Assembly: GCA_965221775.1 (NCBI GenBank)
Contig: CBDCSU010000006.1
Span: forward strand, 96,001 to 160,000
Length of the DNA stretch: 64,000 bases
Source of the DNA: Candidatus Latescibacterota bacterium
GTDB taxonomy: Bacteria; Latescibacterota; UBA2968; UBA8231
Direction of reading: 5' to 3'
Translations under genes and position numbers: made by a program
The notes under the pieces: generated by a model
Seen by the model: only the letters and a program-made list of their open reading frames with translations
Told to the model about the DNA's origin: nothing
Databases searched by the model: none
In this document: piece after piece, positions 7,240 to 41,787 of the stretch
How positions within the stretch are numbered: the stretch's first letter is position 1
How the letters are laid out: the number at the start of each line of letters is the position of its first letter

Positions 7240-7895
7240 GCGCCGTCTCCGTCGCCCCCTCCCTCCTGGCCGCCGACTTCGCCCGCCTCGAGAGCGAGAT
7301 CGAGCGCGTGGAGGCGGCGGGCGCCGACTTCCTCCACCTGGACATCATGGACGGCCGCTTCGTCCCCAACCTCAGCTACGGGATCCCCGTGGTCGAGGCC
7401 GTGCGCCGGTGCACGCGCCTGCGGCTCGACACCCACCTGATGCTCGCCGACCCCGGGGCCTACCTCGAGGCCTTCGCCCGGGCCGGGGCCGACTCCCTCA
7501 CGGTCCACGTGGAGATCGACGCCGACCCGGCCCCGCTGCTGGCCGAGATCGGGCGCCTCGGCCTCGGCCGCGGCCTGGCCGTCAACCCCGGCACGCCCGT
7601 GGACCCCCTGCTGCCTCATCTGGAGAGTCTGGACCTGCTGCTGGTGATGTCCGTGGAGCCCGGCTTCGGCGGCCAGTCCTTCATGCCCGAGGTGCTCGAC
7701 AAGGTCCGCGCCCTGTGCGCCGCCCTGGCCGAACGCGGCCTCGATGTCCCCATCGAGATCGACGGCGGCATCGGCCCCGACAACGCCGCCGACTGCCGCG
7801 CCGCGGGGGCCTCCTGGCTGGTGGCCGGGTCGTCCGTCTTCGGCGCCGGGGATGCAGCCGAGGCGATCCGCCGGATCCGCGGGGCGGAGCGCTAG
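7236..7895 (+). CDS. rpe: Ribulose-phosphate 3-epimerase
   Basis: APSLLAADF, HLDIMDG.FVPN, DTHLM, MSVEPGFGGQ, IDGG. Confidence 0.97.
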   Translation: MSAVSVAPSLLAADFARLESEIERVEAAGADFLHLDIMDGRFVPNLSYGIPVVEAVRRCTRLRLDTHLMLADPGAYLEAFARAGADSLTVHVEIDADPAPLLAEIGRLGLGRGLAVNPGTPVDPLLPHLESLDLLLVMSVEPGFGGQSFMPEVLDKVRALCAALAERGLDVPIEIDGGIGPDNAADCRAAGASWLVAGSSVFGAGDAAEAIRRIRGAER

Positions 7896-7934
7896 GGGCG
7901 CCTCGGGCGACTGCCGCCGGCCGGAGCCGGGTCC

Positions 7935-9347
7935 TCAGGCCGGGGAAACCCGTGCGGCCGGCTCTTCCGCGGCAGCCTCGCGCGGCTCCCGCGGCTCCAT
8001 GCGCATGGGCATGAGCAGGGCGCCGGGACCGCCATCGCCCACGTCGAAGTGGATGGCCGGCAGGCGGCCCTTCCCGTAGCGGACCCGGATCTCCTCGCCC
8101 GCCTCCCCCAGGGCCGCCACGATCGCCTTCAGGAAGTCGTGGTTGACTCCCACCCGGAGGGATTCTTCCTCCAGACCCGTCACCCGCACCGGGCAGGAGA
8201 CCGAGTGGGTCCATTCAGGCCCCTCGCGATCCAGGTCCGGCGCGGCCTCCTCGACGCGGGCGAATCCCTGGTCCCGGCTCGTCCGCAGCGTCAGCCGGCT
8301 CTCCAGCCCCGACAGGTGGATCTCCACGAGAGGGTTGTAGGCCCATCCCCGGCTGGCCCGGTGCCGGGGCCCCAGGTACGGCTCGATCTCCTCCACGCAG
8401 GCCCTCAGCTCCGCGGTGCCGGCGGCAACGGAGACCGATCCGGGCGGGTGGAGGCCGACAGCCTCCTCGTAGCGCACGTAAGGTCCGGGATGGAGGGGGA
8501 AGGTCACGCCGGCGCCGTCCCCCGTGTTGAGGGCGGCCTCGTCCTCGTCGATCACCAGGGTGCCCCCATCGCCCTCGGGGACCGACTCCGCCGTCACCGA
8601 CTCCAGGATCACGGGGGCCGCCAGCGAGACGAGGCCGCGGCTCGGCCAGATGAGCATTCGGGCGCCGTCGCAGGCCACCATGCGGCCCCCCGCCTCCAGG
8701 CAGATGCACCGCAGGATCCGCCGGTGGTCCCGGCCCTGGAAGCGGGCCAGGTGACGCAGCCCGGTCAGGTCGGAGGCGGTCAGCTCGTAGCTCTGGGAGA
8801 AGCTGGAGTCGGGCATGGCGGTGATCTCCTTGTGAAGTCGTGATCGGGCTTTCTGCAGGCGGCTGCGGACGGTGCCGGTCTCGAGGTCCAGGAGGAGGGC
8901 CGTCTGCCGGTACGAGTAACCCTTCAGGTAGTGGTGGACGATCACCTCCCGGTGGGCGTCGCCGAGCCTCCCCAGGGCCTCCCGCAGAAGGCCGCGGATG
9001 CGCTCCTCCCGGGGTGCCGGCGCCGGCGCCGGGAGCGTCTCGTTCCCGAACCGCGCCAGCAGGTCGAGCTGGGTGAGCCGGCGGCGCTGCCACAGGCGCA
9101 CCTGGTTGTCGGCGATCGAGCGCAGCCAGGCGGGAAAACGGCCGGGGTCGCGCAGCGTCGCCAGCCGCTCCCAGGCGGCCAGGAAGACCTCCTGGAGGAG
9201 GTCCTCCGCCGTCTCCGGCGAACCGAGCCTGGAGGTGATCCGGGCCCGCAGCCAGCCCGCGTGATCTTCCACCAGGCGGCCGAAGGCCTCGGCATCACCC
9301 GCGGCCGCGGCCCGCACCTGCTCTCTCCCGTCCCCGTCCATGGTCAC
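7935..9347 (-). CDS. ECF sigma-70 factor fused to a C-terminal DNA polymerase III beta-clamp-like region (domains II-III)
   Basis: Sigma2 AEDLLQEVFLAAW...FPAWLRSIADN; sigma4 REVIVHHYLKGYSY...GTVRSRLQKARSRL; C-region VACDGARM, GPYVRYEEAV, VGVNHDFLKAIVAAL, ALLMPMRM resembles DnaN. Confidence 0.8.
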   Translation of the reverse strand: MTMDGDGREQVRAAAAGDAEAFGRLVEDHAGWLRARITSRLGSPETAEDLLQEVFLAAWERLATLRDPGRFPAWLRSIADNQVRLWQRRRLTQLDLLARFGNETLPAPAPAPREERIRGLLREALGRLGDAHREVIVHHYLKGYSYRQTALLLDLETGTVRSRLQKARSRLHKEITAMPDSSFSQSYELTASDLTGLRHLARFQGRDHRRILRCICLEAGGRMVACDGARMLIWPSRGLVSLAAPVILESVTAESVPEGDGGTLVIDEDEAALNTGDGAGVTFPLHPGPYVRYEEAVGLHPPGSVSVAAGTAELRACVEEIEPYLGPRHRASRGWAYNPLVEIHLSGLESRLTLRTSRDQGFARVEEAAPDLDREGPEWTHSVSCPVRVTGLEEESLRVGVNHDFLKAIVAALGEAGEEIRVRYGKGRLPAIHFDVGDGGPGALLMPMRMEPREPREAAAEEPAARVSPA

Positions 9348-9444
9348 CCTGATAGTTGCGCCACCGGACCGGAAGTATCCGGACCCCTTCCGGGATACCC
9401 CTGCCTCCGCTCGGCCCGCCGTGGCGGATCCGCCCCCCTCCGTC

Positions 9445-9450
9445 TATATT
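9445..9450 (+). promoter_or_regulatory. -10 element (TATATT) of ffh operon
   Basis: TATATT about 40 nt upstream of the ffh start; recurrent motif in this window. Confidence 0.45.
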
Positions 9451-9491
9451 TAGTCGTTTTGCCCCAAGAGGTTACGAGCCCCGGAGGCGGA

Positions 9492-10844
9492 TTGTTCGAG
9501 AGACTGACAGAGCGCTTCGACGATGTCTTCCGCCAGCTGCGCGGCCACGGGCGCATCAGCGAGAAGGCCCTCGACCAGTCCCTGCGCGAGATCCGCCGCG
9601 CCCTCCTCGAGGCGGACGTCAACTTCAAGGTGGCCAGGAGCTTCCTCGGCCGCGTTCGCGAGCGCGCCCTCGGACGCGAGGTCCTGCGCAGCCTCAGCCC
9701 CGGACAGCAGGTGATCAAGGTCGTCCACGAGGAGCTCGTCGCCCTTCTCGGAGGCACCGCCGCGCCGCTGGAGCTGGCGCCGCAGCCGCCGACGGCGGTG
9801 CTCCTCGTCGGTCTGCAGGGCTGCGGCAAGACCACGGTGGCCGCCAAGCTCGCCCGCCACTTCAAGGAGCGGGGGCGCCTCCCGTACCTGGTGGCGGCCG
9901 ACACCTACCGCCCCGCCGCCGTCGAGCAGCTGCGCACCCTCGGGGCCTCCATCGACGTCGGCGTCTTCGGCCCCTCCGAGGCCGGCTCCGAAGACCCGGT
10001 CGAGATCTGCCGCCTCGGCGTGGAGCAGGCCCGCCTCAACAACCGCAGCATCGTCCTCCTCGACACCGCCGGCCGCCTCGGCATCGACGAGGAGATGATG
10101 GCCGAGCTGACGGCCATCCGCGAGGCCGTGCAGCCCCACGAGATCCTCTTCGTCGCCGACGCCATGCTCGGCCAGGACGCGGTGGAGACGGCGAGCCGCT
10201 TCCACGAGCGGCTGGCCTTCCAGGGCGTGGTGCTGACCAAGATGGACTCCGACGCCCGCGGGGGCGCGGCCCTGTCGATCCGCCAGACCACCGGGCAGCC
10301 GATCCGCTACGTCGGCACGGGCGAAACCCTCGAGGGACTGGAGCCCTTCCACCCGGACCGCGTCGCCTCCCGCATCCTGGGGATGGGCGACGTGCTCTCC
10401 CTGGTGGAGAAGGCGGAGCAGAGCTTCGACCGCGAGCAGGCCGCGGCCATGGAGGCTCGCCTGAGCAGGGAGGCCTTCACCTTCGAGGACTTCCAGCAGC
10501 AGCTGCAGGCGGTCCGGGGCATGGGGCCGCTGGACCAGTTGATGGGCATGATCCCCGGCGCCGGCAAGGCGTTGAAGGGGGCCCCCGTCGACGACGGCGC
10601 CTTCACCCGCACCGAGGCGATCATCAACTCCATGACCCTTCAGGAGCGCCGCCGTCCGCAGATCCTCAACGGCAGCCGCCGGCGGCGGATCGCCCGCGGC
10701 AGCGGCACCTCCATCCAGGACGTGAACCGCCTCGTCAAGCAGTTCCACGCCATGCAGAAGATGCTGCGCCAGATGAGCCGGCCGGGGCGCAAGGGACGGG
10801 GCCGGAGGTCCCTGCCCCTGCCCCTGTCCATGCCGGCCCCCTGA
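9492..10844 (+). CDS. ffh: Signal recognition particle protein Ffh
   Basis: ALLEADVN, GLQGCGKTT, DTAGR, TKMDSDARGGAALS, FHPDRVASRILGMGD; TTG start with GGAGG RBS. Confidence 0.97.
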   Translation: MFERLTERFDDVFRQLRGHGRISEKALDQSLREIRRALLEADVNFKVARSFLGRVRERALGREVLRSLSPGQQVIKVVHEELVALLGGTAAPLELAPQPPTAVLLVGLQGCGKTTVAAKLARHFKERGRLPYLVAADTYRPAAVEQLRTLGASIDVGVFGPSEAGSEDPVEICRLGVEQARLNNRSIVLLDTAGRLGIDEEMMAELTAIREAVQPHEILFVADAMLGQDAVETASRFHERLAFQGVVLTKMDSDARGGAALSIRQTTGQPIRYVGTGETLEGLEPFHPDRVASRILGMGDVLSLVEKAEQSFDREQAAAMEARLSREAFTFEDFQQQLQAVRGMGPLDQLMGMIPGAGKALKGAPVDDGAFTRTEAIINSMTLQERRRPQILNGSRRRRIARGSGTSIQDVNRLVKQFHAMQKMLRQMSRPGRKGRGRRSLPLPLSMPAP

Positions 10845-35788: not shown

Positions 35789-35980
35789 ATGAGCATTGAG
35801 TACACGATCGTCATCGAGAGAGACGAGGACGATTGCTACCTTGGAAGTGTCCCCGTGCTCCCAGGCTGCCACACTCAGGGAAAGTCAATTGACGAGTTGC
35901 TCGAACGGATGCAGGAGGCGATTGCGCTCTGGCTCGAGGTCAACGGGGGTCGCCGCCCTCTTGCGCCGGGGCCCCCGTGA
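35789..35980 (+). CDS. HicB-family antitoxin (short, no adjacent HicA)
   Basis: YTIVIERDED..YLGSVP.LPGCHTQG.SIDE...RMQEAI.LWLE. Confidence 0.85.
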   Translation: MSIEYTIVIERDEDDCYLGSVPVLPGCHTQGKSIDELLERMQEAIALWLEVNGGRRPLAPGPP

Positions 35981-36102
35981 TCTTCCATCAACGTCGGAGA
36001 GGCACGGTACCACTGTCCTGGTACTGTATTCAGCGACCCAGCCATCGGCCGTCTGGCCAGAATACTGACCCGCCTGTCCAAGAACCTAATGGGGTTTCTT
36101 CG

Positions 36103-36864
36103 ATGAGCTACAACTCCGCAATCGAATGGACCGACGCCACCTGGAATCCGGTAACCGGCTGCACCAAGATTACGCGCGGCTGTGACCACTGCTATGCCGA
36201 GCGCATAGCCGAGCGGTTCCGAGGTACACCGGGGCATCCCTTTGAGAATGGGTTCGATCTCACCCTGCGACCGGAGCGTCTGGCTCAACCCCTTTCCTGG
36301 AGACGGCCGCGCAGGGTCTTTGTCAACTCAATGAGCGACCTGTTTCACAAGAGGATCCCGGTTGAGTTCATAGACCGCGTATTCGACACCATGGAAGCCG
36401 CGGAAAAGCACATCTTCCAGGTGCTCACCAAGCGGAGCTCGCTGATGAAGAACTATCTCCAGCACAGGTATGGATCTGGGCAAGGGCCACGCCATATCTG
36501 GTGCGGGGTCTCCGTAGAAGATCACTTGGGGACAGCAAGAATCCGGCATCTCCAGAGGGCGCCGATTCCAGTTCGCTTTCTCTCGATAGAACCCCTTCTC
36601 GGTCCAGTGGGCGACATCGACCTCGAGGGAATATCCTGGGTCATCGTCGGCGGGGAGAGCGGTCCCAAGGCCCGCCCCATGGAGCTGCACTGGGTACTCG
36701 ACATCAAGAAGACCTGTGACCGGGCGGGAGTCGACTTCTTCTTCAAGCAATGGGGAGGACCGACCCCGAAAGCCGGAGGACGCCTGCTACAAGGAGTCGC
36801 ACATAACGCGATGCCCCTATTGACAGAGAGAGAGGAACCCCATGGATTTCAGGAGGCATCCTGA
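36103..36864 (+). CDS. Phage Gp37/Gp68 family (DUF5131) radical-SAM-like protein
   Basis: SAIEWTDATWNPVTGCTKITRGCDHCYAE, FVNSMSDLFH, LTKR, WVIVGGESG, FFKQWGG. Confidence 0.92.
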   Translation: MSYNSAIEWTDATWNPVTGCTKITRGCDHCYAERIAERFRGTPGHPFENGFDLTLRPERLAQPLSWRRPRRVFVNSMSDLFHKRIPVEFIDRVFDTMEAAEKHIFQVLTKRSSLMKNYLQHRYGSGQGPRHIWCGVSVEDHLGTARIRHLQRAPIPVRFLSIEPLLGPVGDIDLEGISWVIVGGESGPKARPMELHWVLDIKKTCDRAGVDFFFKQWGGPTPKAGGRLLQGVAHNAMPLLTEREEPHGFQEAS

Positions 36865-36930
36865 CGAACCCCCGCCTCTACCCTGAGCCACACAGCAAGG
36901 CGAAACTGGACGTCCTGCGATGCTACCTTG
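36842..36930 (+). pseudogene. 5' remnant of three-Cys-motif partner protein (TcmP-like)
   Basis: ATG overlaps the DUF5131 end; frameshifted EPHSKAKLDVLRCYL matches the TcmP N-terminal pattern; usual DUF5131 partner. Confidence 0.6.
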
Positions 36931-37014
36931 GGTTTGAGCTCTGCGGACCAAGTGACCCAATCGATCGATCCAGAGTTATGTGGCTGACAGACGTGCTCTC
37001 TAGGAAAGACTGTC

Positions 37015-37545
37015 ATGAGGAGTAGTCAAGGGTTCTTGCGAGAGGTATTGTGGCGACCCAGATCAGCAATATCGGGATTGATTGCTCTACTACTCTCCAT
37101 CTCGTCGTGGGCTGGCCTAGGCGCGAACTGGACGCCCCTCGAGAAAACACTTGTGCCGGTCTCCCTACTCCTAGCTGCCCTACTGGTGAGCGTTCTCTTC
37201 TCGTCCTACTCCCTCCTCAAGAAGTCTGACCGTCCACTCAGTGTGCGCAGGGTAACCGAGGGGAAGCACTACTACAAGGATCAACTGATGGTCATCTTGG
37301 AGGCCCGTGATACTGTCCTTGTTGGCGACATTCTGACCTTGTTTGTACGGGAAGGTGATACTGAGACACCGATCTGCCTTGTATCAGTCGAGGCCATGTC
37401 AAGCAAGGGCTTCCCCCAGAGCATAGTACTCCATGGACTCACTGATGAAACATCACAATATCTCCGTGATGAGAGCAGACTCGAACAACTGCAGGCAAAA
37501 CGTGGCATAACAAGGAGGGCACTGGAATGTCTGAAGACGCTATAG
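37015..37545 (+). CDS. Hypothetical 2-TM protein with beta-rich C-domain
   Basis: Two hydrophobic helices then a soluble domain; low GC; overlaps next ORF. Confidence 0.7.
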   Translation: MRSSQGFLREVLWRPRSAISGLIALLLSISSWAGLGANWTPLEKTLVPVSLLLAALLVSVLFSSYSLLKKSDRPLSVRRVTEGKHYYKDQLMVILEARDTVLVGDILTLFVREGDTETPICLVSVEAMSSKGFPQSIVLHGLTDETSQYLRDESRLEQLQAKRGITRRALECLKTL

Positions 37546-37898
37546 AACACGACGGCCTTGTCGCCCATGTCCTTGATGACAGAAGGCTTGTCATCAACAA
37601 GGGAGCGCAGGACAACATCACGATGGGCACCAGATTCGTGGTGTACACGGTAGGGGAGGAAATACACGATCCTCGGACAGGAGAAAGCCTTGGAATACTG
37701 GAAGAAATCAAGGGCAAAGGAGAGGTTGTTCATGTTCAGGATCGAATGTGTACCATTAAGACCTTCGAGTTCGACATGGTGATAGAACCAGTCCCTGAAT
37801 TTGCGGCGGTCTTTTCCTTGGTCAAGGAAAGGAAGCGAAAGGTCTATAGCGAATTCGTTGATCCCGAACCCGGAGACTATGTGCGAAGAATCCGTTAG
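37527..37898 (+). CDS. Hypothetical protein, FlgT C-terminal-like beta domain
   Basis: VINKGAQDNI..GTRFVVY..GEEIHDP.TGESLG.LE..KG.GEVVHV pattern; AGGAGG RBS. Confidence 0.7.
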   Translation: MSEDAIEHDGLVAHVLDDRRLVINKGAQDNITMGTRFVVYTVGEEIHDPRTGESLGILEEIKGKGEVVHVQDRMCTIKTFEFDMVIEPVPEFAAVFSLVKERKRKVYSEFVDPEPGDYVRRIR

Positions 37899-37924
37899 AT
37901 GAGGATCGCGGAACGTGTCTGGGA

Positions 37925-38180
37925 GGCGGGTGTGATCCACACTTCGTTCGAGCGCGTGGGGCAGCCCTTGGACGAAGCGCTCGGGATGGCGTGTGTAGGC
38001 GTCCTCAATGACGCTCTCCCGCTCGGCCTGCAGGACACCGGCGCGCCCCGGTCCTGGTGTAGGGTCAGCTGCTCCGGCTCGATGGCCTGCTCGTGGCAGA
38101 CGGCCTGGATCAGGCGCCGGGCACGACCGGCGCTTTCCCGGGTGGCCACCGTCCAGGCGACGACGTAGCGCGAAATATCG
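37925..38180 (-). mobile_element. Internally deleted IS3-family transposase remnant
   Basis: SRYVVAWTVATRESA...QLTLHQDRG (integrase core) joined to AYTRHPERFV...VWITP (C-terminus) in different frames. Confidence 0.7.
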
Positions 38181-41100
38181 CCCCAATCCTCCGCGCCATC
38201 TCCGCAAAGTACAGCACCTCCTCCGGCGACAGGGGCCTCCCGAGGACATCGCGTTCCCGGTAGGACAACCACTTCTTGAGGACTTGGTAGCCGCCGAGCT
38301 TGTAGTCCCAGATGGCGGCGGGGACGTTGCGCCAGAAGGCGCGGTCGTTCAGGTAGACGTCCAGCGTCGTGGCGCCGAGGGTGGGGATGGCATCGCCGAG
38401 GGCGGCGCGTTCCTCTGGGGTGTATTCGCGTTCGACGATACGGCCTTGCCCCGGCATCACCGCGTCACCCGTTCCGAAGTGGCCCCACCCCGCTGTCAGG
38501 GCGAAATCGTCGCCGGTCATGTTGCGGCCGCCGGACGTGGCCGGTACGGCGATGGCGCTGATCTCTGGAAGCAACGTGCCTTGGGTAACGCCGGGCACCG
38601 GCGTGTCGGGATCGAGCAGGCGTGCGAGTTCCCGGCCGCGCGCCGCTGATTCAGCGAGGGTCTCTGCTGCGCCGTCAGCATCGCCATCGGGCCAGCCCGG
38701 GAGCGGGATGCGGGGCCATTCCATGCGGAGAGCCCCGGCGTTGGCCTCTCGGTAGGCGGGGTCGTGGAGGGTGGCGAGGACATGGTGGAAGAGATTTTCT
38801 ACGCTCGCGCCGATTCGGTGGAGATAGCGTTGGGCGGCACCGGACAAGTTGGGGCGGCGTTGTATTTCGTTGCCGCTGATTCCGAGGCCCCTGTCACGGA
38901 GGTAGGCAGGGAACATGTTAGCACCGCGCTCAATCAGATGATGTGAACCGATTCGTTTCGTAAAACAAGCTTGTGGTTCTTCTGCGTCCTTCCGCAGATG
39001 CTGCGCGGCTGACAGCCACATATTTCCATCGAACACATGCGGCCGGTAGTCAACGCGCTTCTCGTCAAGCAGTTTTGTTTCCGCTTCCCAATAGAGCCAG
39101 CGATTGTCAAATGGCCGGTAAGCAAGGCGTATAAAACCGGCGTTGACTGGACCTCCACGCGCAAGCAGTGCGTTCCGCCCAGAATCAGCGTCAAACCGCG
39201 CCGTGGATTTCATCGCACTTGGATAGCGCCGCGCTACCTGGTCATGGCTCAGTTCCGTATTGAAGTAATCAGCGACCCGAGTCTTGAGCCGATCTATGTC
39301 AACGTCGACGAGAAAAGCATCACGGTTGGTCAGAACTCCGTGAAATCGAACTGGGAACAGATCGGTCAAGGCCGGCCAGTCGAACCAGCCCTCGCTCACC
39401 GCCGTTTGCATGAACGGCTGGCCCAGCGGCAGCACCGGTGCAATATGCTTGTAGAGCACGTCCGGTTCCGTCTCCTCAGTCTCAATCAGTTCCTCGCGCT
39501 TGGCTTGTCCCCACAAATGTCGAAAGCCGACCTCTCCAGTTGGCACATGGTTGGCCTTGCGCACCAGCGTCGCAATCGCCGTCCCAACTTGAATGCCGAC
39601 CGGGTCGCCTTCCGTCGAAAAAATGCTCGGGTCGGGTGAGCCGTCGGGCGCCACCTTGCCGGTCTTGTATTTGTCGCCGTTCAAGCAGTCGATGCGGATC
39701 GCGTCGAATGCCTCGAGATAGCGCTCCCGCATCCCGGTGAAAGACAGCCCGTCGAGCCAGGAGTAGTTGGAGATGAAGCAGACCACACCCTGGCCCGTCC
39801 TCTCGGCGATGCGCCGTTCCGCCATGCGGAAGAACCGCACGTAGAGATCGTTCAACCCTCGTCCCTCGGGCCGGCGCACCCGCTTCGTCGTGCGGTAGGC
39901 CTCGGACAGCTCCCGCTCCTCCTCCACCGCCACGCCGGCGAAGCCGTTGTAGGGCGGATTGCCGAGGATCACCAGGATCGGGGTGTCCCGCTTCACGCGC
40001 TCGGCGCGGTCCCGTTCCTCCTCCAACTCCGGGAAGGGCAGGGGCTTGTCGGTCTTCGGCTCCCAGCCGGTGAGGGCGTTGGTGAGGAAGACACCGGCGC
40101 GTTCGTCTCCGTCCTCCGCCAGCGGCGCGTCGAGGTCCTGCAGGGTGAGGCCGACTTGCAGGTGGGCGACGACGAAGGGGGCGGGCATGATCTCGAAGCC
40201 GAAGACCCGTTCCAGGGCCGCCTGCTTCACCCGCGCGCCGGCGAGGGCGCCGAGGCCGCGGCCTTCGAGGTTGGCGGCGATGCGGCGCAGGACTTCGGCC
40301 AGATAGGCGCCGGTGCCGCAGCAGGGGTCGAGGACGTAGACGTTGTCGGCGGCCAGCCCGTCGGAGATCCCGAGGTCATCCCGCAACGCCCGGTCGACGC
40401 GGGCGACCATGTAGCGCACGACTTCAGACGGCGTGTACCAGACCCCGAGTTGCTTGCGCAGGCCGGGGTCGAAGGCTTCGAGGAAGGGCTCGTAGAAGTA
40501 GGGCACGGCCTCGCCCTCGTTGAAGCGGGAGAAGAAGGCCGGCCGGTCCACCCGGTCGAGGGCCGCCGCGGTCCAGTCCATCACCTCGACGAGGTCGAGG
40601 TGCCGCAGGCGGGCGGGGCCCGAGAGCTGATGGAAGAGCGCCCGCAGGACCGGGGCGCGCAGGTGCCAGACCGAGGTGCGCCAGTCGAAGCGGTCATCCT
40701 GCCTGGCTTGCCGCGCCCACAGCACCCAGGCAGAGAACAGGCCGTAGAACAGGGTCTGCACGAGGGTCGAGCGGAAGAAGGCCTCGCCGCGCTTGCCCTC
40801 GAAGCGAACCCCCAGGGCCTCCTCAAGGGCGGAGCGCACCGCCTTCAGCGGTTGTGCGTCGCCGGCGGCCTCGACTCGGGCCAGCCCGTCGCGGGCGTAC
40901 GAGGCCAACAGCCAGGCGAGGTCCCTCGGCTCGGACAGCGCGGCGCGGTGCGCCAGCGCCCGGCCCAGGTACTCGGCCAGGCCGGCGCCAATGTCGCGGG
41001 CGAAGGATTGTGGCGTCTCCAGGCGCTGCTCGAACTCCTCGGCGCTCTCCGCCAGCCGGAAGGCCTCGAGCTTGGTGGGAAGGCGCGCCGAGTCCTCCCC

Positions 41101-41496
41101 GACGAGCACGAAGTCGCGGGTGTTGGTCACCAGCACGAGGCCGTAGCGGTCCCAGTAGCGGCTGACCTGTCGGCTGTGCGCGGTCAGCCAAGCGTCGTCG
41201 TCCGCGGACTTCACCTCCACTACGCCGCGCTCGGGCCTCTGCCCCGGCCGGGGCTGCCCCTTCTGTACCTGCCGCGACGAGTAGAGCCCGAAGTCGGGGT
41301 GGCCCGCTCCCTGGTCGGCCAGCTCGCCGACGCAGAACACCTTGGGCTTGAGGGCGCCGCCGACGGCGTTGAGCAGGTTGGCCAGCGGCCCGTAGCTGGA
41401 GCGCTCCCCGGTGGCGCTGCCGGAGGCACGGATCCGGTGCAGGTCGGTCAGGTAATGCTCGACCGCCGCCGTCAGGCGGGCCGTCTTGGTGGCCAT
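38110..41496 (-). CDS. Single-chain restriction-modification enzyme (Type IIG/ISP-like, N6-adenine MTase plus TRD)
   Basis: N-terminal PD..EVK nuclease (HPDF, VEVKS, LVTN), GVWYTP, LDPCCGTG, GNPPY, YRPFD, GGYQVLKKWLSYR; last ~20 aa derive from the IS remnant. Confidence 0.88.
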   Translation of the reverse strand: MATKTARLTAAVEHYLTDLHRIRASGSATGERSSYGPLANLLNAVGGALKPKVFCVGELADQGAGHPDFGLYSSRQVQKGQPRPGQRPERGVVEVKSADDDAWLTAHSRQVSRYWDRYGLVLVTNTRDFVLVGEDSARLPTKLEAFRLAESAEEFEQRLETPQSFARDIGAGLAEYLGRALAHRAALSEPRDLAWLLASYARDGLARVEAAGDAQPLKAVRSALEEALGVRFEGKRGEAFFRSTLVQTLFYGLFSAWVLWARQARQDDRFDWRTSVWHLRAPVLRALFHQLSGPARLRHLDLVEVMDWTAAALDRVDRPAFFSRFNEGEAVPYFYEPFLEAFDPGLRKQLGVWYTPSEVVRYMVARVDRALRDDLGISDGLAADNVYVLDPCCGTGAYLAEVLRRIAANLEGRGLGALAGARVKQAALERVFGFEIMPAPFVVAHLQVGLTLQDLDAPLAEDGDERAGVFLTNALTGWEPKTDKPLPFPELEEERDRAERVKRDTPILVILGNPPYNGFAGVAVEEERELSEAYRTTKRVRRPEGRGLNDLYVRFFRMAERRIAERTGQGVVCFISNYSWLDGLSFTGMRERYLEAFDAIRIDCLNGDKYKTGKVAPDGSPDPSIFSTEGDPVGIQVGTAIATLVRKANHVPTGEVGFRHLWGQAKREELIETEETEPDVLYKHIAPVLPLGQPFMQTAVSEGWFDWPALTDLFPVRFHGVLTNRDAFLVDVDIDRLKTRVADYFNTELSHDQVARRYPSAMKSTARFDADSGRNALLARGGPVNAGFIRLAYRPFDNRWLYWEAETKLLDEKRVDYRPHVFDGNMWLSAAQHLRKDAEEPQACFTKRIGSHHLIERGANMFPAYLRDRGLGISGNEIQRRPNLSGAAQRYLHRIGASVENLFHHVLATLHDPAYREANAGALRMEWPRIPLPGWPDGDADGAAETLAESAARGRELARLLDPDTPVPGVTQGTLLPEISAIAVPATSGGRNMTGDDFALTAGWGHFGTGDAVMPGQGRIVEREYTPEERAALGDAIPTLGATTLDVYLNDRAFWRNVPAAIWDYKLGGYQVLKKWLSYRERDVLGRPLSPEEVLYFAEMARRIGAIFRATSSPGRWPPGKAPVVPGA

Positions 41497-41787
41497 GATG
41501 GGGGTCTCTCAGAGTAGCCGCGGCCTGCTGCTCTTGCCAGCGGCAGCGGCACTGGCAGCGTCAACTCGCCTGATGGACTTCGGACTCAAGAACTGTACGG
41601 CGGGAAGGATAGAGGACGTTCACAAGATAATGGACGGCGTCCATAGTCGCGATGGCCATGTGGCGGCATCTTCCGCAGCCGTGCGCGAGCTCCAGATCCA
41701 GGGACGGCAGGATGGCCTGTGAGGGTTATATTCCTGAGCAGACGAAACAACCTGCCTGCCGAGAGTCCTCGGATCGCCGAACAGGAA

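Follow-up and report, generated by a model that had tools for sequence, protein, structure and literature searches.

The subject of this analysis is a protein-coding gene within a stretch of 64,000 nucleotides (the window, whose positions are used throughout) from the Candidatus Latescibacterota assembly GCA_965221775.1, contig CBDCSU010000006.1, positions 96,001 to 160,000 of the forward strand. A lone minus-strand gene that converges with rpe and diverges from ffh, it joins a sigma factor of the extracytoplasmic function (ECF) type to a module related to domains II and III of the bacterial sliding clamp, DnaN (Table 1). Such an architecture had been proposed earlier from the letters and translated open reading frames (ORFs) only (the sequence-only reading), and the ORF as well as the five motifs quoted in its support (RRILRCICL, VACDGARM, GPYVRYEEAV, VGVNHDFLKAIVAAL and ALLMPMRM) were all recovered in the translation. 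The true start is probably the ATG located two codons inside the ORF, because the identical database cluster (P0002) comprises 468 aa, the relatives start with MD.DG, and this ATG occurs in all aligned relatives, the GTG only in some of them (e.g., not in L005). Residues 1-176 are, as judged by sigma2 and sigma4 matches above curated thresholds, a complete ECF (group IV) sigma factor, in agreement with what had been read into the first ~175 residues. Only the families of regions 2 and 4 match here, with a 30-residue linker between them and neither region 1.1 nor region 3; TIGR02937 (sigma70-ECF) scores 85.8 bits against a cut-off of 42.9, and profile matches to ECF sigma factors in the PDB go down to E 3.2e-32. 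The sigma factor is connected by about 9 residues to the 270-residue module, the C-terminal extension amounting to ~290 residues in all.

To single-sequence searches, the clamp relationship of this extension is invisible. Residues 177-470 returned only DUF6968 at E 0.05 from Pfam, with no match of DNA_pol3_beta_2 or DNA_pol3_beta_3 at E up to 10; the best phmmer match of the module in the PDB was not significant (E 0.62); and BLASTP against the DnaN of the same genome aligned short colinear motifs only (best E 0.069). PHROGs gave a weak processivity-factor match only (phrog_947, E 0.0025), and a protein atlas provided no more than a lead ('putative DNA polymerase III subunit beta' at 0.86). 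The relationship is decisive once the profiles of the relatives and structure are used. Comparison by hhalign of a 48-sequence family alignment with 19 DnaN sequences of the phylum gave a probability of 99.5% at E 1.9e-22 over 235 columns (99.56% and E 1.5e-23 in a rerun), the match extending over module positions 7-276 and positions 129-386 of the genome's own DnaN. A profile of the window module and short family members found 55 PDB matches at E<=1e-3, all 55 of them beta clamps (best 3.7e-19). Pfam DNA_pol3_beta_3 (PF02768) is matched at E<=1e-3 by 8 of 61 family representatives; when the window's own genome is scanned with it, the canonical dnaN alone matches.

The structure predictions are consistent with the profiles. 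The AlphaFold2 (AF2) model of the module alone is confident, with a predicted local distance difference test (pLDDT) of 92.9 and a predicted template modelling score (pTM) of 0.89. Its alignment to solved clamps by VIA-align yields Z 19.6-23.8 and root-mean-square deviations of 2.3-3.9 Å over 226-235 aligned residues, model positions 4-275 corresponding to E. coli beta 120-366, that is, to domains II and III. The full-length AF2 model is less confident (pLDDT 70.7, and below 50 in the linker and at the junction, residues 90-129 and 174-182), and Foldseek places the same clamps at the top of its matches (E ~1e-11). Collectively, this makes us all but certain that the module is a homologue of DnaN domains II and III with the same fold and that the two halves form one architecture. 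The extension is accordingly described, from alignment and model, as an ancient, strongly diverged copy of these two clamp domains. The replacement of clamp domain I by a sigma factor, as proposed in the sequence-only reading, is supported by hhalign, the PDB profile and the fold match.

The fusion is real and stands in one conserved frame. Both halves are present in 13 of the 16 close database hits (446-469 aa), the rest being a 294-aa piece from a 1.3-kb contig and two truncations of 264 aa. Among the 168 sampled genomes of the phylum, 65 contain a strong match (>=200 bits), one per genome and all in open frames of 370-510 aa. Contigs from runs of two other studies span 7800-9500, one with 9 substitutions and no gap, the other with 11 substitutions and a single gap of 5 bases, located before the start codon, so that the coding part is free of indels. 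A stop or frameshift between the two halves, which had been named as an outcome that would speak against the fusion together with a lack of similarity to DnaN, occurs neither in these independent contigs nor in the 65 genomes, and the fold of the module matches that of the clamps. A further line of evidence for the fusion comes from the ratio of nonsynonymous to synonymous substitution rates (dN/dS), which in comparisons with five relatives amounts to 0.11-0.38 in the sigma half and 0.33-0.48 in the module.

Table 1. Positions in the window of the sigma-clamp fusion gene and of its recognizable parts, in the order of transcription
Feature	Position	Strand	Remarks
Candidate own promoter GGATAC-N16-CAACTAT	9352..9380	(-)	Ends 10 bases before ATG 9341; sole exact copy in the 5.36-Mb genome
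Whole ORF	7935..9347	(-)	470 aa from GTG 9347; 468 aa from the probable start ATG 9341; stop codon 7935-7937
Sigma-70 region 2, residues 25-89	9081..9275	(-)	Pfam PF04542 (Sigma70_r2), E 9.9e-14, 51.3 bits vs cut-off 24
QLDLL, residues 93-97, start of sigma2-sigma4 linker	9057..9071	(-)	Fits clamp-binding motif Q-phi-x-[L/M]-[F/L]
Sigma-70 region 4, residues 120-171	8835..8990	(-)	Pfam PF08281 (Sigma70_r4_2), E 2.4e-11, 43.5 bits vs cut-off 25.7
Clamp-like domain II', residues ~185-289	8481..8795	(-)	hhalign, PDB profile, AF2 model, structure alignment
VACDGARM in domain II'	8655-8678	(-)	Counterpart of DnaN pocket strand VATDGHRL
Clamp-like domain III', residues ~290-450	7998..8480	(-)	Includes YVRYEEAV
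Family-specific insert LGPRHRASRGW, residues 325-335	8343..8375	(-)	Just after helix aligned to DnaN dimer-interface helix (own DnaN RRVSILSS)
Family-specific 17-residue loop ending in W379	8211..8261	(-)	W379 kept in 98% of relatives; no counterpart in DnaN
VGVNHDFL in domain III'	8130-8153	(-)	
Terminal LLMPMRM in domain III'	7998-8018	(-)	
Variable low-complexity tail, residues 451-470	7938..7997	(-)	Missing in many relatives; low pLDDT

The module has a wider distribution than the fusion. An exhaustive HMMER scan of 1.84 billion representative sequences retrieved 64 clusters at E<=1e-3 and 43 at E<=1e-10, and among the 61 family representatives scanned with Pfam, Sigma70_r4_2 was detected in 30 and Sigma70_r2 in 27. 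Proteins of ~270-290 aa that start at the module (e.g., P0020, P0024 and P0035) represent a free-standing two-domain form, which constitutes an undescribed branch of the DnaN superfamily; P0045 has a zinc-ribbon-like leader at the N-terminus, P0062 a SEC-C motif at the C-terminus, and some short family members are cut sigma fusions. Within the phylum, the fused form was found in the window's class only (65 of 132 genomes, against 0 of 36 from other classes), where it is spread across four families: 30 of 76 genomes in the window's own family, and 2 of 3, 18 of 22 and 15 of 31 in the three others. Within the window's genus, 5 of 10 genomes carry it. This patchy, accessory distribution had not been part of the sequence-only reading, nor had the linker motif QLDLL and the remodelled ring interface considered below. 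A metagenome scan returned six loci, just two of which (L084 and L085) belong to the family. Related metagenome-assembled genomes were labelled by their submitters as Gemmatimonadota or Gemmatimonadaceae, or as Candidatus Latescibacterota. Sequence almost identical to 7800-9500 occurs in 20 public runs, which come from 8 studies and most of which carry the label sponge or marine metagenome; the organism is probably a sponge-associated bacterium.

The housekeeping neighbours of the gene are rsmB, a gene for a PASTA-domain protein and rpe (ribulose-phosphate 3-epimerase) on the upstream side, and ffh (SRP54/Ffh), rpsP, rimM and trmD on the downstream side. Only 4 of the 27 related loci share the rpe/ffh synteny, the other relatives being placed elsewhere. 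Four congeners lack the gene at the rpe-ffh site (L091-L095 compared with window 7896-9491), and because rpe and ffh are there ~215-280 bp apart with nothing between them, the difference is understood as an indel of a single gene.

Comparison of the module with DnaN reveals which parts of the clamp have been kept and which have been changed. The 18 residues of the clamp pocket (subsites I and II) and the interface residues were adopted from the review PMC11139829. Between the module and the DnaN of the same genome, 11 of the 18 pocket positions are identical, as compared to 38 of the 208 other aligned positions (Fisher p 1.7e-4); within the family, the mean conservation of pocket columns is 0.66 vs 0.45 elsewhere (Mann-Whitney p 2e-4), with G228, N402, M446 and P447 kept in 92-98% of 48 relatives. 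By these measures the predicted peptide-binding pocket is the best-conserved part of the module, in line with the attention that the sequence-only reading had given to the peptide-binding cleft. The ring-forming features present a different picture. Domain I is missing, the alignments reaching only the DnaN and beta positions given above and the N-terminal 176 residues being sigma factor. An insert without DnaN counterpart follows the helix aligned to the dimer-interface helix, and at least 94% of 48 relatives have H329, Y337 and P339 at or near this insert; a second family-specific loop ends in the conserved W379. The mean net charge of the channel helix III-1 is -2.2 in the family vs +0.8 in DnaN, the counts of lysine plus arginine are below those of DnaN in three of the four channel helix regions, and the AF2 model shows hardly anything of the second helix of domain II'. 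The genome also carries a canonical dnaN of 386 aa, adjoining a RecF-type gene. The absent domain I, the insert at the interface, the acidic channel helix and the kept pocket together suggest a clamp derivative that bears a pocket but does not form a ring, and not a second DnaN.

Trimeric clamps are built from units of the two-domain clamp fold, and one could conceive that three of the modules close a six-domain ring in the manner of PCNA and T4 gp45, or that a module associates with DnaN, either arrangement keeping the sigma factor tethered to DNA. The fold is indeed very well kept (Z up to 23.8), and free-standing two-domain forms exist. However, the family has its specific insert where DnaN closes the ring, the domain II' helix is nearly lost in the model, helix III-1 is acidic, and basic residues are reduced in number in the channel helix regions; a module-specific clamp loader was not evident, although no search was aimed at one. 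We regard a DNA-tethered sigma factor of this kind as highly improbable.

Evidence on how the gene is controlled, and on what it might control, was sought in the upstream sequence. All relatives (L002-L028), irrespective of their neighbours, show GGATAC, then 16-17 non-conserved bases, then (G)CAACTAT, which stops some 10 bases short of the ATG. This GGATAC-N16/17-CAACTAT arrangement resembles, as far as the aligned upstream sequences tell, a two-box ECF promoter pattern with a very short leader, and the gene probably drives itself. Counting against the promoter assignment, the boxes of close relatives vary (GGGTAC; CAACAGT, CAACTGT), and one contig from another sample is without five of the spacer bases. 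The spacer of the window (9363-9367) has a tandem TCCGG TCCGG that is present as a single copy in that contig, through a 5-base deletion. Of four other genomes in which the exact motif was detected, three have it once. The fourth (G168) has a second, 43-base copy (L100 1500-1541), ~200 bases upstream of a gene for a 709-aa protein with CBM9 and DUF5916. In the 51-56% identity group of relatives, 13 of 21 loci have two paralogous CBM9-like genes downstream on the same strand (e.g., L006 7381-9017), a synteny that proves little because these genomes are close kin (CBM9 proteins 90-97% identical). None of the seven CBM9-like matches in the window's own genome is preceded by the promoter motif or adjacent to the gene, and the co-located CBM9 and DUF5916 proteins do not have a clamp-binding motif. 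With one mismatch allowed per box, a search of the own genome returned 19 matches, none of which made a convincing target; two control patterns matched 10 and 11 times. CTATATT at 9444-9450 was also considered as a promoter of the sigma gene and was rejected, for it is kept upstream of ffh in congeners without the sigma gene; it is probably the -10 element of ffh, which seems to start at TTG 9492.

The sequence-only reading had suggested that the protein senses replisome or repair proteins, or else clamp-targeting toxins or antibiotics. This part of it found no support: a partner, a ligand or a DNA-damage regulon did not emerge from the analysis, and the only hints of a regulon are the CBM9 and DUF5916 proteins. 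The idea of toxin or antibiotic sensing merits a specific formulation, in which the pocket serves as decoy or guard, binds clamp-targeting molecules in trans (phage inhibitors, SocB-type toxins, natural products) and so frees the sigma factor for a response. It would be consistent with a pocket conserved while ring features are lost, with an accessory and patchy gene, as defence genes often are (in about half of the genomes of class and genus, and an indel at one site), and with a host living in sponge and marine communities; PDB entries whose titles describe clamp complexes with a phage protein, griselimycin and mycoplanecin provide examples of ligands in this pocket. Against this idea, PADLOC did not match the window protein, tblastn gave no match in phage and plasmid collections, and no defence genes flank the gene in the window or in the relatives examined. 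On balance, we consider such a sensor quite unlikely. Elsewhere in the window, the interval 35900-41500 has a G+C content of 0.56-0.63 as compared to ~0.71 in other parts and may be a mobile or defence island; it comprises several small ORFs, a 1128-aa ORF with the appearance of a methyltransferase/restriction enzyme fusion, and a 295-aa ORF which we take to resemble the phage Gp37/Gp68 (DUF5131) family.

Our proposal for the function of the module is that of a regulatory C-terminal extension that would act by peptide binding on the attached sigma factor, and we hold it in even balance. The module would then not be a DNA-encircling clamp. It would be a protein- or peptide-binding domain that sets sigma activity, and it would work by taking up a short linear motif in what was once the peptide pocket of the clamp. 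Among candidate ligands, QLDLL at the start of the protein's own linker is the most concrete; it fits the definition of the clamp-binding motif in PMC11139829. Bound to the pocket in cis, QLDLL would hold sigma2 and sigma4 locked until it loses its place to a rival clamp-binding peptide or to the real clamp. To this cis lock we assign about half of the credence given to a pocket-based role, and a ligand acting in trans appears about equally possible. Of the 35 fused relatives, 33 have Q93, whereas only 8 of 98 shorter ECF homologues have Q in the same column, one of these 8 being a fragment of the fused family. Prediction of a complex between sigma (1-176) and module (177-455) gave ipSAE values of 0.27, 0.37 and 0.00 against a mark of 0.32; having been run without controls, it speaks neither way.

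A number of observations weigh against this proposal. Our even-handed rating of the pocket-based role reflects three of them in particular: of the 35 fused relatives, only 13 have the strict motif, and almost all of these 13 belong to the subfamily of the window protein; distant members resemble an amphipathic helix at this place (e.g., QLRLEE, QLRWEAL); and an ECF paralogue in the same genome, which has a different extension (a weak 3-keto-disaccharide hydrolase match, 24.0 bits vs a cut-off of 26.8), shows RRLEQLRL at the same position, so that the linker motif may be a trait of the sigma clade. The pattern occurs somewhere in 9 of 96 unrelated ECF sigma factors, which gives the level of chance. 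The full-length AF2 model, of low confidence, places QLDLL in a helix (residues 68-97) outside the pocket. With respect to the pocket, the equivalents of H175 (H in 31%), R246 and V344 are not kept in the family; H329, Y337, P339, G361 and W379 outside the pocket are conserved to the same degree as pocket residues; and the enrichment test is to some extent circular, since the pocket motifs themselves anchor the alignment and are also the most conserved residues of DnaN. The promoter-motif search in the own genome yielded no regulon. The gene is moreover dispensable, as its absence from the four congeners tells, 2 of 27 related loci are decayed, and the dN/dS of the module is only moderately low.

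These last points could also be explained by a relic domain, that is, an extension merely stabilizing or inert on an otherwise ordinary ECF sigma factor, or a gene heading for loss. Besides the patchy presence, the argument for it is that the dN/dS of the module exceeds that of the sigma half (0.11-0.38) in five of five comparisons, and that the protein is 75-89% identical to its relatives where neighbouring housekeeping proteins are 90-98% identical. Decay is seen in L025 (~6170; in-frame stop in sigma2 and truncation) and L027 (~6770; truncated after the VATDG strand, then unrelated sequence), and the metagenome contig L085 (2990-4095) has a split, shortened sigma-fused copy. Difficult to reconcile with a relic are the preservation of the fused frame down to 24% identity and in four families, dN/dS values well below 1, pocket and family-only residues kept in 92-98% of 48 sequences, and the occurrence of the module both free-standing and with other partners (zinc ribbon, SEC-C motif). 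We consider a relic very unlikely.

Extended to its most far-reaching form, the proposal of a pocket-based regulatory extension would describe a switch that links an ECF regulon to the state of the replisome. The pseudo-clamp would hold the linker's true clamp-binding motif in cis, and free DNA-loaded DnaN, or clamp-binding proteins released under replication stress, would compete for the motif or the pocket and thereby activate the sigma factor or tether it to DNA. We are doubtful of this scenario; if true, the protein would be a single-polypeptide cellular counterpart of the clamp-dependent transcription by T4 gp45/gp55 and Mu MuC. In a closely related alternative, replication-coupled transcription, QLDLL binds the real DNA-loaded DnaN, thus tethering the holoenzyme to DNA under replication or repair, and the pseudo-clamp gates the contact by masking the motif in cis. 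The fit of QLDLL to the published motif and a clamp-type pocket able to compete for it are in favour of such coupling, as is the reported precedent of clamp-dependent transcription in T4 (PMC7892883) and Mu (PMC12867686). Against it stand the restriction of the strict motif to a minority of the fused relatives, the CBM9 and DUF5916 proteins as sole hints of a regulon, and a genomic context in which no link to a replication or repair gene appeared at any of the loci examined; located at the sigma2 end, the motif may furthermore be buried in the holoenzyme. Replication-coupled transcription is, in our judgement, unlikely.

The preferred reading of the module as a regulatory extension can be placed among known systems at several levels. 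Among sigma factors, those of the ECF type that carry a fused sensor domain play the part of 'one-component systems', and few of their sensor types have been studied. Like the ECFs with regulatory extensions (SnoaL in ECF41, TPR in ECF42), the window protein has a sigma2-sigma4 core and a fused domain of more than 50 residues, and there is no anti-sigma gene nearby, neither beside the window gene nor among the domain-scanned flank genes of relatives. C-terminal ECF extensions are stated to accompany a lack of anti-sigma factors (PMC7826278), and the ECF41 extension to act on a motif in the sigma2-sigma4 linker (PMC8999054). Unlike ECF41 and ECF42, the extension here is a homologue of DnaN domains II and III, and the sigma-DnaN fusion would be a new type of ECF regulatory extension. 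The window's own genome has further extended ECFs whose extensions match 3-keto-disaccharide hydrolase and TPR_19 weakly, both just below the Pfam cut-offs (G000 C6:753060, L033 1477-2625; and C6:372111, L032 1456-2607, respectively), and one relative has an ECF sigma factor with a pentapeptide-repeat extension (L101 2516-3451). No account of a sigma-clamp fusion came up in our literature search, whose reach did not include most subscription journals or any supplements; the main text of the ECF reclassification paper (PMC7826278) does not mention clamp, DnaN, polymerase III or Gemmatimonad, though its supplementary group tables may list the group. The MerR-DnaN fusion put forward as a known analogy in the sequence-only reading could not be verified by a full-text search of the literature. 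Derived from the replication clamp, such a sensor would provide ECF sigma factors with a new class of input, and it would show that the clamp pocket, a hub for polymerases and repair proteins and a target of antibiotics, has been reused outside replication.

With DnaN, the module shares homologous domains II and III (Z 20-24) and the correspondences of VACDGARM to VATDGHRL, of N402 to N320, and of LLMPMR to VVMPMR. Unlike DnaN, it has two domains instead of three, is fused to a sigma factor, stays below the Pfam thresholds, and has a remodelled interface and one acidic channel helix. The DnaN ring is closed by I272/L273 of domain III against domain I, a partner which in the module is absent. 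In general outline, the module can be likened to the herpesvirus processivity factors UL42 and UL44, which have a two-domain clamp fold, do not form a closed ring and bind the peptide of a partner; unlike it, they are subunits of viral DNA polymerases with a basic DNA-binding face.

A further analogy is with phage transcription. In the clamp-dependent transcription of phage T4, gp55 and gp33 bind the clamp gp45 (PMC7892883), and MuC of phage Mu binds the E. coli clamp (PMC12867686). In these systems, clamp-binding motifs connect the sliding clamp physically with a promoter-specificity factor or an activator. The phages use a real, DNA-loaded ring in trans; in the window protein, by comparison, the clamp part is covalently attached, lacks one third of a ring and may make no contact with DNA. 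The window protein combines a sigma factor, a candidate motif of the T4/Mu type and a clamp-fold domain in one polypeptide. T4 and Mu demonstrate that clamps can activate transcription, and the protein of this study raises the question of whether bacteria, too, couple transcription to the clamp.

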